This document shows positions 5,074 to 43,132 of a stretch of DNA of 64,000 nt, one piece after another. Under the pieces are notes generated by a model, which saw only the letters and a program-made list of their open reading frames with translations, made no database searches and was not told where the DNA came from. How positions within the stretch are numbered: the first letter of the stretch is position 1; each line of letters opens with the position of its first letter. This DNA comes from an uncultured Spirochaetota bacterium (GTDB lineage: Bacteria > Spirochaetota > Brevinematia > Brevinematales > JAOACQ01), in NCBI GenBank assembly GCA_963768055.1, contig CAVYGN010000001.1, forward strand, positions 1,024,001 through 1,088,000, written 5' to 3'. The translations under genes and the position numbers were made by a program.

Positions 5074-5436
5074 ATGAGTGAAACAAATATTCAACTTAAA
5101 AAGGGTGTTATAGAGATATTGATCTTAAAACTTTTAAGCCGGGAGAAAATGTACGGTTACCAGCTTATGCAGGAACTCGATATTAAAAGCCGCGGTTTTT
5201 TTAAAATGAAGGAGGGGACGCTTTACCCGGTTTTATATCGCCTGGAGGACGGAGGGTTTATTACGAGTCTATGGGAAGAACCGGACCGCAGCAGTGTTGA
5301 AAAACGATCGGTGCCCAGGAAATACTACCGGATCACTAAAGAAGGACTTGTCGAACTTAACAAACTGATATCGGATCTAGAACAATTATTTAGCGGAATT
5401 AACCTCATTCTGAAGGAGGGACCTGAAAATGGATGA
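5074..5436 (+). CDS. PadR-family transcriptional regulator
   Basis: LKKGVIEILIL...MYGYQL...EGTLYPVLYRLE...RKYYRITKEG. Confidence 0.95.
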   Translation: MSETNIQLKKGVIEILILKLLSREKMYGYQLMQELDIKSRGFFKMKEGTLYPVLYRLEDGGFITSLWEEPDRSSVEKRSVPRKYYRITKEGLVELNKLISDLEQLFSGINLILKEGPENG

Positions 5437-8898: not shown

Positions 8899-10752
8899 TT
8901 GAATCTGTTATCGTTATGTCATACAACGGCGTTATTTGTTAGCTTATGGCTAATTTATTTAATTCTTTTTAAAAACTCAAAAGCCCTGTCAAACTGGGTT
9001 TGTGCATTGTTTATTCTATGCATAGCGGTCTGGAATTTCACTTTTATATTCCTCCAGGGTCCCTCGTCGCATGATACAGCCATGTTCTGGTTGAATATTT
9101 CCGTTATCGGCTGGGGTTCTATTGGCGTTTTATCGCTATGGCTCGGCCTTGTATTATCTAAATGGGATAAAATATTAGAAAAATGGTATTTTTATCTTAT
9201 CATATTTTCAATTCCGATCTTTTTTATATATAAGCAATGGACAGGATACCTTGTCCATGATATCATAAGACAACCCTACGGCTGGTCGCCTTTATGGTCA
9301 GAGTCGATCTGGACCCGGATTTTTTATGCTTATTTATCTTTAATTCCAATAATTACTTTCTTTTTCGGCTATAATGCTATAAAAAAAAGAAATTTGCAGT
9401 TTGAGAAGAAAAGGATTAAATTAACTATTACTTCGGGTTTCATCTTTTTTATTTTTATATCGCTTACAGACATTGTTCTTCCGGGACTTGGCATCTATGG
9501 CATTCCCCCTGTCGGTGCTCTCACAGCGCTTATTATGGCTAGTATAATTATCTACGGAATAAAAAAATATAGATTGATGACCATCACTCCCGCATATGCG
9601 GCCTCCGATATCCTTGCCACAATGAGCGATTCATTGATCCTCATCAGTCCTGACGGCAGCATCATTGAAGTTAACAACGCGGCATTGGACCTTCTTGGTT
9701 ACAAGAGAGAAGAGATTATCGGCAGCCCGGCTACGATATTGTTCCCCGAGGAAATCGTAAAATTTCAGGATAAAAGCGATTTGTCCGACAGACAACAATT
9801 TTTTTTACTTACAAAACAAAGAGAGGAAATACCCGTCAGTTTTTCAGCCTCGACCATGAAAGATAAAACGGGTGAATTATTAGGCATAGTCTATGTAGCC
9901 AGGGATATGCGCGAGATCCTGATGCTTCAGAAAAAGGAGAAGGAGCTTAAAGCCGAAAAAGCATGGACTGAAGCATTGCAGGAAAAAGCCCTGGATTTAC
10001 AGGAAGCGTATGACAAGCTAAGAGAAACTCAAACCCAACTGGTTCATTCGGAGAAGATGGCTGCCGTGGGACAGCTAGCCGGCGGCGTCGCACATGAGAT
10101 CAATAATCCGTTGGGAGTTATACTGGGATTCGCCCAGAGCTTAGTGAAGAGGATAAAAGAGGACGACTACCTTTATAAACCTCTAAAATCGATTGAGCGC
10201 GAAGCTTTGAGGTGCAGGTGGCTTGTGGGCGATTTACTTACATTCTCGAGGGTTGAAAAGACAATGTCTGAAGAAATTGATATTAACCAGGCCATTGACG
10301 AGACATTATCTTTTATAGAGGCGCGTGCAAAGATACAAAACATTACGATCTTCAAGGAATACGGAAAGGGGTTGCCCCGGATATTTGCAAATAAAAATCA
10401 GATACAGCAGGTCGTTGTAAATCTATGCAATAACGCTATCGATGCGATGTCGGATGGAGGGAACTTAAGGCTTTTAACCAGAGAGGAAGGCGATTGCATA
10501 TCGGTTGCTGTTTCGGACACCGGAAAGGGGATTTCCGAAGAAGTAAAGAAACACCTTTTTGAGCCCTTTTTTACCACAAAAGAAATTGGCAAAGGAACCG
10601 GCCTTGGGCTGAGCTTATGTTACGAGATCATTCGAAACCACAACGGTGCAATCGAAGTTAAAAGCGAGATGAATAACGGAACCGTATTCACCATAAAATT
10701 TCCGGCAGGTAGAACCGATAACGATGTGAAACTTTCAGGTTCAGGGAAATAG
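8899..10752 (+). CDS. Sensor histidine kinase, HisKA_7TM-PAS-HisKA-HATPase (NtrB-like)
   Basis: Seven TM N-terminus, PAS, H-box GGVAHEINNPL, N-box NLCNNA, G1 DTGKG, F-box FEPFFTTK, G2 GKGTGLGLS. Confidence 0.93.
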   Translation: MNLLSLCHTTALFVSLWLIYLILFKNSKALSNWVCALFILCIAVWNFTFIFLQGPSSHDTAMFWLNISVIGWGSIGVLSLWLGLVLSKWDKILEKWYFYLIIFSIPIFFIYKQWTGYLVHDIIRQPYGWSPLWSESIWTRIFYAYLSLIPIITFFFGYNAIKKRNLQFEKKRIKLTITSGFIFFIFISLTDIVLPGLGIYGIPPVGALTALIMASIIIYGIKKYRLMTITPAYAASDILATMSDSLILISPDGSIIEVNNAALDLLGYKREEIIGSPATILFPEEIVKFQDKSDLSDRQQFFLLTKQREEIPVSFSASTMKDKTGELLGIVYVARDMREILMLQKKEKELKAEKAWTEALQEKALDLQEAYDKLRETQTQLVHSEKMAAVGQLAGGVAHEINNPLGVILGFAQSLVKRIKEDDYLYKPLKSIEREALRCRWLVGDLLTFSRVEKTMSEEIDINQAIDETLSFIEARAKIQNITIFKEYGKGLPRIFANKNQIQQVVVNLCNNAIDAMSDGGNLRLLTREEGDCISVAVSDTGKGISEEVKKHLFEPFFTTKEIGKGTGLGLSLCYEIIRNHNGAIEVKSEMNNGTVFTIKFPAGRTDNDVKLSGSGK

Positions 10753-10761
10753 TAATTTGAT

Positions 10762-12597
10762 ATGATAAACCTTTTAAACATAGCCTATTATTTTTCTTTT
10801 CTTATATGTGTTTGGCTTATCTTTTTTATTATCTCAAAAAATCCGAAAGGCTTGGCAAATAAAGTTTGTGCCATGCTTATTTTATGTTTTGCGATCTGGA
10901 ATTTTTCGGTTTTGTTTTTGCAAAATTCGAAGTCCGGGAATGAAGCAATGTTATGGAAAAATATTTCTTCATTTGGATGGTGCGGTTTCGCCGGCTTCGC
11001 AATCTGGCTTTCATATATTATAACATGGAAGGATATCGGAAAGAAAATTATAAAATGGCACTTTTACCCCCTTATCTTCATATTTCCTGCTTTCTTTATT
11101 TTTATGCAATGGAACGGTTATCTGGTTGTTAACTTTACGAAACATGCATATGGGTGGGTATATGAATGGTCTACATCAATCTGGCCCATGCTTTTTTTTG
11201 TGTACTATTTTTCGTTTATTATCCTTGCGTTGGCTTTTGCTTATTTGTCTATAAATAAAAGAATTTATAATTTTGAAAAAAAAAGAAAGAGATTAATTAT
11301 TATTTCAGCATCGATTTTTCTTATTGCCGCTTCTACTACCGAAATTGTTCTGCCGCTATTAAAAGTTTACATCGTTCCACCGATAGGCTCAATCTTTTCA
11401 GTCATTCTGGCTGCGGCTTTTGTATACTCGATAAACAAATACAAATTTTTGTCACTTAATCCGGCATATGCCGCATCCGACATAATTTCAAACATGAGCG
11501 ATTCTTTAATCCTTATTGACAGTGAAAGCAAAATCATTGAAGCAAACAACGCCCTATTGAATATGCTCGGATATTCAAGTTATGAACTTATCGGCAGCGG
11601 GGCTGAAAAATTATTTATGGGGCAAAGGCCGGCGAATGCCGCCGTTAAATGGGAACTTTTATTTAAAAAAGAATCTTTCAAAAATATAAAAATTGTATTT
11701 AGAACTAAAGACGGCGATGATATTCCTATAAGTTTTTCGGGCTCGGCTATGAAAGATAATGAAGGTAATTATATAGGGATAGTTTGTATAGGCAGGGATA
11801 TGAGGGAGATATATCGGCTGCAGGAAAGGGAACAGGAACTTGTGGCTGAAAAGGCCCGTACAGAAGCATTTCAGGAAAGGGCCCGGGAATTACAAAAAGC
11901 ATATGACAGTTTAAAGACAGCTCAAACTCAGCTCATACAATCCGAGAAAATGGCTGCTGTAGGGAGGCTGGCCGGCGGTGTGGCTCATGAAATCAACAAT
12001 CCATTGGGAGTCATACTTGGGTTTGCCCAGAGCATAATAAAAAGAATAAAAGAGGACGATCCGCTTTATATACCTTTAAAATCGATTGAGAGAGAGGTGA
12101 TCAGATGCAGGAAAATGATTGTTGATTTATTAAAATTTTCCAGGACAGAAAATACTATGGCCGAAGATATTAATTTAAACAGGACAATTGAAGAGACATT
12201 ATCTTTTGTCGGGTCCCGCGCCAAAGTAATGGGAATTGATATTATCAAAGAATTTCAGGATGATCTGCCTCTGATAAGGGCCAATAACAACCAGATTCAG
12301 CAGTTAATAGTTAACCTATGCAACAATGCAATAGAATCTATGCCTGAAGGCGGTAAAATAAAGATAACTACAGGAAGGATTGGCAATAGCCTGGAGTTTT
12401 CGATAAGCGACACAGGTATAGGTATGAGTGAGGAAAATAAAATGCATATATTCGAACCCTTCTATGCCACAACAGGTTTAAGCGTATGCCGGGAGATTAT
12501 CAATAAACATAATGGAACTATTGAAGTTGAAAGTGTATTAAATAACGGGACTTTATATAAAATAAACTTACCTTTAGATGCGTGCTTTAATAAATAA
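10762..12597 (+). CDS. Tandem paralogous 7TM-PAS histidine kinase with a truncated G2 box
   Basis: Same architecture and identical H-box, but the F/G2 region reads FEPFYATTGLS. Confidence 0.9.
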   Translation: MINLLNIAYYFSFLICVWLIFFIISKNPKGLANKVCAMLILCFAIWNFSVLFLQNSKSGNEAMLWKNISSFGWCGFAGFAIWLSYIITWKDIGKKIIKWHFYPLIFIFPAFFIFMQWNGYLVVNFTKHAYGWVYEWSTSIWPMLFFVYYFSFIILALAFAYLSINKRIYNFEKKRKRLIIISASIFLIAASTTEIVLPLLKVYIVPPIGSIFSVILAAAFVYSINKYKFLSLNPAYAASDIISNMSDSLILIDSESKIIEANNALLNMLGYSSYELIGSGAEKLFMGQRPANAAVKWELLFKKESFKNIKIVFRTKDGDDIPISFSGSAMKDNEGNYIGIVCIGRDMREIYRLQEREQELVAEKARTEAFQERARELQKAYDSLKTAQTQLIQSEKMAAVGRLAGGVAHEINNPLGVILGFAQSIIKRIKEDDPLYIPLKSIEREVIRCRKMIVDLLKFSRTENTMAEDINLNRTIEETLSFVGSRAKVMGIDIIKEFQDDLPLIRANNNQIQQLIVNLCNNAIESMPEGGKIKITTGRIGNSLEFSISDTGIGMSEENKMHIFEPFYATTGLSVCREIINKHNGTIEVESVLNNGTLYKINLPLDACFNK

Positions 12598-12604
12598 CTT
12601 TATA

Positions 12605-14656
12605 TTACTGGCTCTTAAGCTGTCCGTTAAGCCATTTTTCTTTGTTGGCGGTTTCTGTCAGGACCTGGTTCATTTTGCCGTATTTTTCTCTAAGGTCCTG
12701 TTCGTATGTAACAAGATCCCTGTTCATTTTTTCTATTTCTTTCTGCTCATCGCCGATTTTCCTGTTGTTAAACACTATCCTCTCATCGAAGAAGCTTCCC
12801 GTCCCTATGCTGAGACGGAGGGTCTGGTTGACCGATACCGCTGCGCCCGAATCTTTGACCATGTCGCCATGGGTATCATAAGCGAAAAGCTGTTCGACGC
12901 CGTCGAATCTGCTTTTTAAGGCGTTGCGGAATTTCTCAAGTTCTATATTCAAAAGACCCATCTTCGTGGAATTCCATTCTTCTGAATTTACGCTGAAAGT
13001 ACCGTTCTTTTTTGTATAGATTCCTATCTGTTCAAGAAGCGAAAGCTCCCTTGTGTAGACTGTTTTATAAGGAGCGGCAGGGATAGTCCTGAGTCTGTTC
13101 ATGAGTATAATAACCGGACTTTCGGTTTGGAAAGCACCGATTTTAAGATTATCCGGGCTCCTCTGACTTAGCGGGGTATGGTCGAGACTGGGTGTCGTTA
13201 CAATATGAAGATATTCCATGGATTTATTATAGCTGTCGATCCATGCCAATAGAGCGTCTTCGATCTTTTTATAGTCATGGTCTATAGAGGCCGTTACCTG
13301 TTCCTTTGATTCCGATTTAAGGTTTAGGGTCACTCCGTCGACTAGGTTGTCGATGATGTTCTTATCCCTTTTAACTTCAACGCCGTCAAAATTGATAATG
13401 GAATCGCTGGCCTTGCTGATAACGTTTTTAGGCTGAATACCGCCCTCGGATATTTTAGTGACAAGGCGGGCGTCCGAGATCATGAATTCCCTGTCGGTGT
13501 TTTTATTTCTTACGGTAACCTTATCTATTGTTTTGTCTTTATATGTAGCAAGCGAATTGCTGAAATTTCCAGTATTATCGATATAATAACTTTTGACGGT
13601 TCCGTCGTCGAAAGATAGAGTCAGGATTTCAGTGAAATTAGATACGGTTTCCGGCGGAATTTTCTTTTCCTCGTAATAGGTTATGAGGCTTCCTCCCGAA
13701 ACTGTTACATTGGAAACCGATACCGGTTCCATTAAATTTATATCGACGTTTGTAGCATTGATATTGGATTCCTTGGATACCGGGTTGTAAGGGCTCATTG
13801 AGGCGTTAAAATAGAAAATGGAACCTTCGGTTATTTTGATATTATCCTGGGACAGGTTTACTTCGCCTTCGTCGCCGGGCAGGAGGCGAACCCTGTTGGA
13901 ATCGGATGTAATAGGGTTTGCAGACCTGGCAGTCAGCTTGCTGAAATCTATATTTTTTTCATCGGTTTTAGCCTCGCCCTCACCCAAAAGGTTTATTTCC
14001 TTGAGGGCGGAAATATCACCGCTAAATTTAAGCTTATTCTTTTCCCCTGTCTCTTTACCGCTTATTACCAGGATTGACGATGCGTCGGTGTCGTTAATTA
14101 TACGGACCTCGATGGCGTCCTGGGCCTGCTGCTGCAGGGCGTCCGCGAGCTGGTAAATGGTCCCGCCGGCGAATTTAAATTTTAAGATTTTACCGCTTAT
14201 AGTTATGGTGAATTCGCAAGGCGGAAGGGTCTTGTCCTTCGGGAATGAAGAACTCTTAAAAGAATCCGGCTTGGCAATTTGAAGAACTGTTATTTTGTAA
14301 GTATCTTTTTTAGCCTTTCTTTCAGCGGAGACATCGAGAACAGCGGGGTCTGAAGAACTGCCGACCATTTCCCTGAAAGGGGTTTTAAAGTCATACAGTG
14401 CCCTAGATTTCTCATCCAGGTCTCTCAAATATTTAGTAAGGTCTTTTACTATATCGTTTTCAAGCTTGTAATCCTGAATTTCAGTTTCTTTTTTTTGTAT
14501 GGGAATCTTCTTTATCAAAAGGAATTTCTGTATCGTATCTTCTGTATTTATCTGATTATTTCCGGGAATATTGAAGTGCACCTGGTTATTGGCATCCTGT
14601 GAAAACGCCGCCGCGTAAAACCCCGCCAGGATTAAAAATATTATAGATACTCTCAT
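12605..14656 (-). CDS. fliD: Flagellar filament cap protein FliD with an N-terminal signal-peptide-like extension
   Basis: FNIPG..NTEDTIQK..KIP N-terminus, SSSDPAVL, YKITVLQIAK, DGVEVKRDKNIIDNLVDGVTLNLK, WIDSYN, C-terminal coiled coil LREKYGKM. AGAGGGGA RBS. Confidence 0.88.
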   Translation of the reverse strand: MRVSIIFLILAGFYAAAFSQDANNQVHFNIPGNNQINTEDTIQKFLLIKKIPIQKKETEIQDYKLENDIVKDLTKYLRDLDEKSRALYDFKTPFREMVGSSSDPAVLDVSAERKAKKDTYKITVLQIAKPDSFKSSSFPKDKTLPPCEFTITISGKILKFKFAGGTIYQLADALQQQAQDAIEVRIINDTDASSILVISGKETGEKNKLKFSGDISALKEINLLGEGEAKTDEKNIDFSKLTARSANPITSDSNRVRLLPGDEGEVNLSQDNIKITEGSIFYFNASMSPYNPVSKESNINATNVDINLMEPVSVSNVTVSGGSLITYYEEKKIPPETVSNFTEILTLSFDDGTVKSYYIDNTGNFSNSLATYKDKTIDKVTVRNKNTDREFMISDARLVTKISEGGIQPKNVISKASDSIINFDGVEVKRDKNIIDNLVDGVTLNLKSESKEQVTASIDHDYKKIEDALLAWIDSYNKSMEYLHIVTTPSLDHTPLSQRSPDNLKIGAFQTESPVIILMNRLRTIPAAPYKTVYTRELSLLEQIGIYTKKNGTFSVNSEEWNSTKMGLLNIELEKFRNALKSRFDGVEQLFAYDTHGDMVKDSGAAVSVNQTLRLSIGTGSFFDERIVFNNRKIGDEQKEIEKMNRDLVTYEQDLREKYGKMNQVLTETANKEKWLNGQLKSQ

Positions 14657-14745
14657 AGAATATCCCCTCTTATATTATACTGTAAATCTATACATATATC
14701 GGAATTTTTACAAATATAAGAAGTTTGCGATAATCCCAGCCCCGT

Positions 14746-15912
14746 TTAAGCTTTCTTCGCGGCCTTTCCCGGCCTGTTCGTGATAACGATAATTGTTACT
14801 GCTATGGAGGCGGCTACGACAATAGCAAGGGCTATTACACTATGTGCTAACATAGAAACAATAATCGTGATTATCGAAAGGGGCAAAGCTATGAGAAAAG
14901 CTATCCCTCCGATCAGGAACCTGCTGACAGTTCCGATTACCGATACTATATCGAGCAGGACGCTGATAGGTTCAAAAACCAGGAAAATTCCAAGCCACAT
15001 CATTATAAAACCTGTAAGCCTTAATATCCAGCCGAGTGTTGAAAACTCACTATGAAGTGTCTGGATGGCCGCCTGCCTGTCAGAATTAAATATCCTGTAT
15101 AATTTTCCGAAAAGCTTGTCGACAATCCTTTTATTGCCGACGGAAAAAGGTTTGAGGGTAATATTTTCAGGATCGATGCTGCCGAACGCCGTTCCAGTAA
15201 ATCCTGATTTTAAGACCCGGTAACTTACCCGTAAATCGCCAAGGCGGGGTGTATCTATGCCGCCTTTGCCATTGTAAATATAATCTCCGGAAATTTCATT
15301 TCGGCCGCTGCCGATATTTACTTTCAAATTTACAAGCTCCGGTGAAATAGGTGAAATCGATTCTTCGGCGGGCAGGTCAAGTCCGGCCGTAGGGATTTTA
15401 TATAATCCCATTTTTATCTCGTTTACTCTTTTTGTGGCGCTTTTTATTTCCATTTCAGGATTTTCATGTCCGGACTTATGAAAGGACTTTCCGGGCTCAT
15501 CTGTCCACTCTTTTGCATATGAATAAGTCGTTACGGTAGTTGAACCGCCGCCTACGGCGTCTTTATGGGTTTCACTGCGCCTGTGTTCAACCCATGCGTA
15601 CATTTCGGCTTTTCTAAAGACTTCCAGGTATTTCCCGTTCTTAAGGAATAAGCCGTCTCCGATTGTTTCACTGGAATTGACTACTCCGTTTAGAGATACG
15701 ATCTGGCCGTTGGTAACATTAGCGGGCCTGGAATTAATATCCATTACGGCAGACAACCGGGCATATTTTGAAAGGTCGACCCTTCCCTCGTTCAGAAAGA
15801 GGACCGCAAATGAACCGAAAAATAAAACTATCCCGACCAATACTCCGATCAGGGAATTGCCAATTCTGCCTCCAAAACCCTGTGACGTTACTTCTGAAAA
15901 TTCATCGGCCAT
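14746..15912 (-). CDS. TMEM43/DUF1625-family membrane protein
   Basis: LFLNEGR, RKAEMYAWVE, YSYAKEW, GHENP, PRLGDLRVSY and WILRLTGFIMMWLG motifs. Confidence 0.85.
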   Translation of the reverse strand: MADEFSEVTSQGFGGRIGNSLIGVLVGIVLFFGSFAVLFLNEGRVDLSKYARLSAVMDINSRPANVTNGQIVSLNGVVNSSETIGDGLFLKNGKYLEVFRKAEMYAWVEHRRSETHKDAVGGGSTTVTTYSYAKEWTDEPGKSFHKSGHENPEMEIKSATKRVNEIKMGLYKIPTAGLDLPAEESISPISPELVNLKVNIGSGRNEISGDYIYNGKGGIDTPRLGDLRVSYRVLKSGFTGTAFGSIDPENITLKPFSVGNKRIVDKLFGKLYRIFNSDRQAAIQTLHSEFSTLGWILRLTGFIMMWLGIFLVFEPISVLLDIVSVIGTVSRFLIGGIAFLIALPLSIITIIVSMLAHSVIALAIVVAASIAVTIIVITNRPGKAAKKA

Positions 15913-42983: not shown

Positions 42984-43132
42984 TTTTTAAAAAGCCGTTA
43001 TTTCGAACGCTGGGTTTATCCTGTAAGGGTTTAATCTTCACCGGTGTAAGATTTCTCTTTGATGTATAAAGACAAATCTTGTTTATTCCGATATTTTTAT
43101 TATGTGCTCCATGGTATTTAAACGGAGTCGGC

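Follow-up and report, generated by a model that had tools for sequence, protein, structure and literature searches.

A putative Sec signal peptide on the flagellar cap protein FliD of Brevinematia spirochaetes

The fliD gene and its product

The DNA considered here, referred to as the window, is a stretch of 64,000 nucleotides from an uncultured Spirochaetota bacterium of the class Brevinematia (assembly GCA_963768055.1, contig CAVYGN010000001.1, positions 1,024,001 to 1,088,000), and its subject is a gene for the flagellar cap protein FliD whose product starts with a segment resembling a signal peptide. The open reading frame (ORF) at 12605-14656 encodes full-length FliD according to Pfam, NCBIfam and the predicted fold. 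Both Pfam domains are present well above their cut-offs, FliD_N (PF02465) with an E-value of 4.5e-13 (50.1 bits versus 24.8) and FliD_C (PF07195) with an E-value of 1.4e-37 (129.8 bits versus 25.4). The NCBIfam model for spirochaete FliD, NF005188, aligns residues 28-681 with profile positions 4-656 of 661 (E 2.7e-115), at a score of 386.2 bits that is under the curated equivalog cut-off of 469. An AlphaFold model built from an input alignment of 50 sequences has a mean pLDDT (predicted local distance difference test) of 84.5, with a long N-terminal helix at residues 38-86 and a C-terminal helix at 622-682. Foldseek matches it best to experimentally determined FliD cap structures, namely 6sih_A (E 1.5e-22), 9gnz, 9m68 and 5h5v, and nearly all of the top 35 or so ranks are FliD structures. 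Because the NF005188 alignment begins only at residue 28, the first 24 or so residues precede what is already a complete FliD. The features of the gene are as follows.

12605..14656, minus strand: fliD coding sequence, precursor of 683 residues, stop codon included (ORF, Pfam, NCBIfam and fold)
14656-14654, minus strand: ATG start codon of fliD (from the sequence)
14600..14656, minus strand: codons 1-19, putative Sec / signal peptidase I signal peptide, with n-region MR, a hydrophobic core and c-region A-F-S, followed by Gln20
14582..14599, minus strand: codons 20-25 (QDANNQ), short polar linker from the putative cleavage site to the canonical N-terminus
14267..14554, minus strand: FliD_N domain (residues 35-130), N-terminal D0/D1 helix (Pfam PF02465)
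12650..13411, minus strand: FliD_C domain (residues 416-669), C-terminal D0 helix included (Pfam PF07195)

The protein begins MRVSIIFLILAGFYAAAFS and continues QDANNQVHFNIPG. About 19-24 residues that can be divided into n, h and c regions stand before the canonical FliD N-terminus. After Arg2 come 17 uncharged residues, and the maximum Kyte-Doolittle value over 10 residues is 2.87. AlphaFold draws residues 2-19 as a separate helix, after which the pLDDT is below 50 at residues 19-33. A hidden Markov model (HMM) of the canonical N-terminus places its first position at residue 25 (Q), and the A-F-S that precedes Q20 fits the -3/-1 small-residue rule. Residues 1-30 contain no Cys and hence no lipobox, nor is any Cys conserved among the orthologues. 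The n-region, with its single Arg (MR), has no twin-arginine translocation (Tat) motif; an RR pair is seen in only one class locus (L023), where it stands outside a Tat consensus context. We regard the extension as a putative signal peptide for Sec export and cleavage by signal peptidase I.

Conservation of the extension in Brevinematia

The class was sampled with 41 Brevinematia genomes, the window's own included. A FliD match was found in 39 of them, with one match per genome in nearly all relatives, and the two genomes that gave none are 57% and 73% complete. Thirty loci (L003-L032) were fetched, one of which (L026) is cut by a contig end, leaving 29 evaluable loci from seven families. The start of canonical FliD was located in each with an HMM made from 91 canonical N-termini. 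In all 29 loci, the 45 residues before the canonical start contain both an in-frame start codon and a 10-residue window with a Kyte-Doolittle value of at least 2.14, and in most the same segment holds one to three Lys or Arg residues. An earlier note on this DNA, made by a model from the letters and their translations, had described a signal-peptide layout ahead of the usual spirochaete FliD N-terminus, and the alignment starts of NF005188 and Pfam, together with these 29 loci, bear this out. Absence of the extension from close orthologues had been set down beforehand as a possible refutation; it was found in every one of them.

The sequence of the extension turns over quickly. Over residues 2-19 the two closest orthologues are 50% and 44% identical to the window protein, and in relatives that retain 23-49% identity in the mature part it drops to 0-22% (about 10%). 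Despite this turnover hydrophobicity is kept among the class loci, as is a small-residue junction in most of them, and the reading frame stays open across the seven families as the length of the extension varies in frame. Signal peptides usually evolve in this manner, keeping their chemistry while the sequence diverges. In many orthologues a small residue (A, S or G) closes the hydrophobic stretch and the next residue is polar, often Gln; the linker between core and canonical N-terminus spans 0-13 residues, with many Q, S, K and T. A crude, home-made rule for cleavage sites, used descriptively only, places a site in 27 loci, and among these the net charge of the n-region is +1 to +3 in 26 and 0 in one. 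By comparison, a crude signal-peptide rule flags 19% of the ORFs in the genome (579 of 2998). At such a rate one isolated occurrence might be accidental; judged across these sequences, a pattern that runs through the class cannot be.

Start codon and promoter

Whether the extension belongs to the protein depends on where translation begins, and three further features bear on this point.

14663..14670, minus strand: strong ribosome-binding site AGAGGGGA, 6 nucleotides upstream of the ATG
14696..14703, minus strand: sigma-28-like -10 element TCCGATAT, 39 nucleotides upstream of the ATG
14579..14581, minus strand: in-frame GTG at codon 26, candidate alternative start

The positions that the earlier note had given for the ATG, the ribosome-binding site, the -10 box and the GTG all agree with the sequence. 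Ribosome-binding sites of the form AGAGGGG or AAGGAGG also precede the signal-peptide ATG in L004-L007, L012, L014-L016, L023 and L032. At the position of the GTG (codon 26), two orthologues of the same genus, L004 and L005 (82% and 79% identical), have no start codon; the next one after the signal-peptide Met comes at frame codon 85 in L004 and codon 52 in L005. Translation from GTG 14581 alone is therefore untenable. In 24 of the 29 class loci no ATG, GTG or TTG lies after the hydrophobic core and before the conserved FliD N-terminus; the five that have a start codon near the canonical N-terminus are L003, L007, L008, L016 and L025. The signal-less isoform that had been suggested to start at GTG 14581 is thus unsupported as a general feature, given the 24 loci with no such start and the absence of the GTG from two orthologues of the same genus.

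The promoter is also placed upstream of the extension. A core CCGA[AT] lies 25-65 nucleotides before the signal-peptide ATG in 24 of the 29 class loci, compared with 0-7 of 29 in nine control windows of the same loci and 0 of 29 for the reverse complement. The element TCCGATAT conforms to the sigma-28 type GCCGATAA, and the genome encodes the corresponding sigma factor FliA (276.6 bits versus a cut-off of 189.6). Only the -10 half of the sigma-28 promoter consensus is recognisable at fliD: the sigma-28-like -10 box of the earlier note stands, with its 24 loci, and no -35 box lies at consensus spacing. A scan for sigma-70-type promoters gave weak matches only. Because the conserved -10 core is upstream of the signal-peptide ATG, the fliD transcript most likely starts upstream of the extension. 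On the evidence of ribosome-binding site, alternative starts and promoter position, we conclude that the extension is translated.

Elsewhere in the window, the full pattern TAAA-N13-17-CCGATAT is matched at two places only, 5368-5392 (minus strand) and 43067-43094 (plus strand). The chance expectation is 0.59, and 10 of 100 shuffled sequences reach two matches.

Flagellar genes of the genome

The genome (3.69 Mb in 2 contigs, 94.75% complete), which the names of close homologues assign to Brevinematales / Brevinematia, yields a single match to each of FliD_C and FliD_N, and the two fall in the same ORF at 12605-14656. It encodes three FlaB-type flagellins, FlgL, FliS and several paralogues of the FlaA sheath protein; FlgK, FlgE, two FlgG-like proteins, FlgC, FlgD and FliK; FlgN, directly upstream of flgK; and FlhA, FliA and signal peptidase I. 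From this gene content the organism is a flagellated spirochaete, and the fliD gene of the window is its only cap gene. Among the things the earlier note had proposed looking for, a second fliD does not exist in the genome, which has the single FliD_N/FliD_C match, and no fliT was found by the Pfam FliT model.

The hydrophobic extension sets FliD apart within the axial/cap set. Eleven other members (three FlaB, FlgL, FlgK, FlgE, two FlgG-like proteins, FlgC, FlgD and FliK) have ordinary N-termini with no such segment. FlaA paralogues of the same genome carry signals in the style of the FliD extension, one of which ends in GATFS before QQ. One FlaA paralogue (G000:C2:380689-381685, minus strand) matches Pfam FlaA in two adjacent, overlapping frames that cover profile positions 30-135 and 135-227, as if it had been split by a frameshift.

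A separate observation concerns a protein of 246 residues encoded outside the window (G000:C2:1834323-1835060, plus strand; loci L037 and L122), which matches Flagellin_N only (E 6e-12, residues 28-152). Its N-terminus is hydrophobic and signal-like, and in this genome it includes a lipobox-like LLLAC. Full-length matches occur in eight genomes, and the full-length orthologues at six loci from three families, this genome included, are all signal-like with no conserved Cys. To judge by its N-terminus, it looks like a second Sec-exported protein of a flagellar axial family in this lineage.

As the earlier note had observed, neither a flagellin gene nor fliS is adjacent to fliD, and in fact no flagellar gene lies beside it. 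The neighbours are the following.

14746-15912, minus strand like fliD and upstream of it: TMEM43-family membrane protein (Pfam PF07787, E 1.4e-42)
8899-10752 and 10762-12597, plus strand: two tandem paralogous PAS sensor histidine kinases of 617 and 611 residues

The TMEM43-family gene is separated from fliD by a gap of 89 nucleotides that contains the sigma-28-like -10 box. The histidine kinase pair converges on the 3' end of fliD; the N-terminal halves of the two kinases are similar, hydrophobic and multi-span, and the second kinase has PAS, HisKA and HATPase_c domains.

Distribution outside the class

A search of a representative library gave 1558 hits at E <=1e-3, the best 150 of which were examined. 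A signal-like N-terminus is present in 14 of these best 150, comprising 11 of Brevinematia type and three others, P0043, P0086 and P0128. The annotated start of P0043 is probably too early, and P0086 and P0128 are outliers; in a protein atlas the clusters nearest to P0128 are Spirochaetota FliD, which is a lead only. One further hit, P0132, comprises a C-terminal fragment alone. A hydrophobic stretch at the N-terminus is lacking in the other 135, most of which open with a sequence of the M-S-D-I-S-I-P-G type aligned to query residue 27-30.

In a sample of the phylum, FliD is found in 148 of 151 genomes. From the 130 genomes outside the class with a match, 60 loci from 60 genomes were drawn so as to be spread across families; alignments that start early were deliberately included, so that the sample is weighted in favour of extensions. 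In 58 of the 60 the canonical start could be placed by the HMM. There is no room for an extension, or no hydrophobic stretch, in 55 of these, and a signal-like extension is present in three: L079 (genome G100), L084 (G151) and L106 (G072). The first two are from two genomes of one genus in family f39, and the third is from family f34. A family-mate of the f39 pair, L081 (G108), has a canonical FliD. No extension was found in 120 acidobacterial FliD proteins, all from one clade. The analogous extensions in two other spirochaete lineages suggest convergence, that is, repeated gain where flagella are periplasmic.

The FliT-like chaperone

In Borrelia, FliT (BB0549) binds only FliD, according to a passage in PMC12327847. 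If FliD were outside the type III pathway, its cytoplasmic chaperone should be dispensable. In five canonical spirochaetes, fliS is followed by a FlgN/FliT-like gene of 132-157 codons, and these five genes were made into a five-row profile. The profile found no match in 39 of the 41 Brevinematia genomes and two weak ones (E about 1e-3) in the others; it also misses many families with canonical FliD, such as f15 (0 of 18), f18 (0 of 6) and f28 (0 of 6). We had considered loss of FliT as a corollary of signal gain, and dropped the idea because the profile misses these canonical families and matches the extension-bearing genomes G100 and G151. In the genome of the window, the position directly downstream of fliS is occupied by a gene (L044:311-1420, minus strand) for a very acidic protein of 369 residues with no Pfam match.

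Discussion

In the textbook account of flagellar assembly, everything distal to the basal body, including the cap, passes through the flagellum's own channel. Some flagellar proteins are nevertheless Sec-exported and assembled around the axial structure from the periplasm, namely FlgH, FlgI and FlgA (the L ring, the P ring and the P-ring chaperone); these are ring proteins, outside the axial/cap set that is defined by passage through the channel. Canonical FliD (HAP2), as in Salmonella, E. coli and Borrelia burgdorferi, is a substrate of the flagellar type III system with the cytoplasmic chaperone FliT, as described in PMC12327847. The window protein shares with it the FliD_N and FliD_C domains, the fold (6sih, 9gnz, 5h5v) and the terminal helices, and it is likewise single-copy, regulated in the manner of a late gene and presumably acts in the same role at the tip. 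The difference is at the N-terminus: canonical spirochaete FliD begins at its conserved M-S-D-I-S-I-P-G-type sequence, whereas in the window protein this is preceded by about 19 hydrophobic residues and a junction of signal-peptidase type.

A closer parallel in terms of targeting is FlaA. A preprint on the Treponema filament states that FlaA sheath proteins have N-terminal signal peptides, are known Sec substrates and reach the filament from the periplasm, and it gives as the standard model that the core (FlaB) and the cap pass through the lumen and that sheath proteins go by Sec (bioRxiv 10.64898/2026.02.04.703737). FlaA is filament-associated, as FliD presumably is, and the FlaA paralogues of this genome have signals in the style of the FliD extension. 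FlaA differs from FliD in having an unrelated sequence and fold; it covers the filament laterally, does not belong to the axial or cap proteins and is not expected in the central channel. In the literature searched, which largely excluded subscription journals, nothing was found on a FliD with a signal peptide or on delivery of the cap by Sec, and the review PMC7225975 does not mention FliD.

We propose that FliD in this lineage is probably exported by Sec, processed by signal peptidase I and docked from outside onto the tip of the periplasmic filament. As a late flagellar gene, fliD would have its transcription driven by a sigma-28-type promoter and its translation begin at ATG 14656, and the hydrophobic N-terminus would direct the chain to the Sec translocon. 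Signal peptidase I would then cut near Ser19/Gln20 and free the mature protein into the periplasm, with an N-terminus five residues (by the HMM; seven to eight by the NCBIfam model) before the point at which other spirochaete FliD proteins start. Mature FliD may oligomerise and dock on the FlgL junction or the filament tip from outside, where it would help FlaB subunits, arriving via the channel, to polymerise. Docking from outside would be possible because spirochaete filaments grow inside the periplasm. Purified FliD added outside cells of a Salmonella fliD mutant restores their filaments, according to a passage in PMC5493677 that cites Ikeda et al. 1993, and a Sec-routed cap is for this reason feasible in principle. 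Sec targeting, cleavage and capping from the periplasmic side are what we infer from the sequences. As for the wider statement that the cap has left the flagellar type III pathway in the whole class and, independently, in at least two other spirochaete lineages, being delivered by Sec and capping from outside, we give it slightly better than even chances.

Several other explanations deserve consideration. FliD may never engage Sec and may still be exported by the type III system, with the extension as a lineage-specific addition, for example a modified segment for export or chaperone binding, or a piece that later contacts the sheath or membrane. This is what the published spirochaete model would lead one to expect, in that it sends the cap and FlaB through the central channel (bioRxiv 10.64898/2026.02.04.703737), and it agrees with the conserved sigma-28-like late promoter of fliD, with the presence of the export gate FlhA and with the retention of a FliT-like gene in G100 and G151 despite the extension. 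We nevertheless think it unlikely, since no comparable segment occurs in eleven other type III substrates that the genome encodes, the layout is that of the genome's own FlaA signals, and turnover with kept hydrophobicity suits a targeting signal better than a binding interface; in addition, the signal recognition particle or Sec normally captures so strong a hydrophobic core at an N-terminus. A second scenario accepts Sec insertion and rejects cleavage, so that the extension would be a signal anchor that keeps FliD attached to the inner membrane while the bulk of the protein lies in the periplasm, either as a membrane-bound assembly factor or to be released only later. A cap, however, has to follow the filament tip as it extends to micrometres from the membrane, and most orthologues have a small residue and then a polar residue right after the core. 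In the window protein, moreover, the uncharged stretch is 17 residues long and the AlphaFold helix stops at residue 19 before a disordered linker. A signal anchor thus appears quite unlikely for the cap, even with the long uncharged stretches and the unclear cleavage sites of some orthologues, described below, in its favor.

The two remaining explanations concern the identity of the protein and the reality of the extension. The earlier note had raised the option of a repurposed FliD, that is, a secreted protein with a non-flagellar function. The absence of flagellar genes beside fliD, and the presence in the same genome of the Flagellin_N-only paralogue with its Sec-like signal, would be in line with this. 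Such repurposing is unlikely in a genome that has this as its sole fliD and a complete flagellar gene set, and we give it very little credence: the gene is full length, with both terminal helices and the sigma-28-like promoter kept, and three FlaB, FlgK, FlgL, FliS, FlgE, FlgD, FliK, FlhA and FliA are present. Because the genome encodes a full set of filament genes, a cap is needed. Alternatively, the start codon may be an artefact, with the true start downstream at GTG 14581 and the hydrophobic stretch an untranslated in-frame leader, given that AT-rich DNA often translates into peptides rich in Ile, Phe and Leu and that a GTG is available in frame at codon 26. We find this scarcely credible. 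The GTG is not conserved in same-genus orthologues and 24 of 29 loci have no usable start; the frame is open, with in-frame length changes, in seven families; a strong ribosome-binding site precedes the upstream ATG and none is properly spaced before the GTG; and the -10 box is upstream of the signal-peptide ATG.

Some of our own results weigh against Sec export with cleavage, or against its generality. Uncharged stretches of 22-24 residues, which is in the range of membrane anchors, occur in some orthologues (L014-L016, L024 and L025). The home-made cleavage rule finds a site in 27 of the 29 class loci, several of them misplaced, and none in L019 and L032, which have no clean -3/-1 site by this heuristic. 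There is no TAAA -35 element at consensus spacing upstream of fliD, where the pattern TAAA-N13-17-CCGATAT is unmatched. A FliT/FlgN-like gene is present in G100 (E 1.7e-18) and G151 (E 8.9e-15), whose FliD proteins bear the extension, and this weighs mildly against an exit from the type III pathway; the lack of a FliT-like match in Brevinematia is uninformative, because the same profile fails in many families with canonical FliD. Finally, the searches began from spirochaete or single-clade queries, so that the restriction of the extension to spirochaetes is weakly tested.

If Sec delivery of the cap is correct, FliD of Brevinematia would be the first natural case of an axial/cap component that bypasses the flagellar channel, a bypass possible only through the periplasmic location of the filament. 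The supply of the cap would be uncoupled from the substrate order of the export gate and from its chaperones, and the cap would function in vivo without passing through the channel, as the in-vitro add-back in Salmonella hinted. A rule of assembly would thereby be tied to cell topology, with periplasmic filaments on one side and external filaments on the other. The extension was apparently gained more than once, in at least three spirochaete lineages, which speaks for a workable arrangement, and the apparent convergence suggests a selective advantage, e.g., a cap supply independent of the export switch or the re-capping of broken filaments. For the class itself, we suggest that the extension provides a clean molecular signature of Brevinematia.

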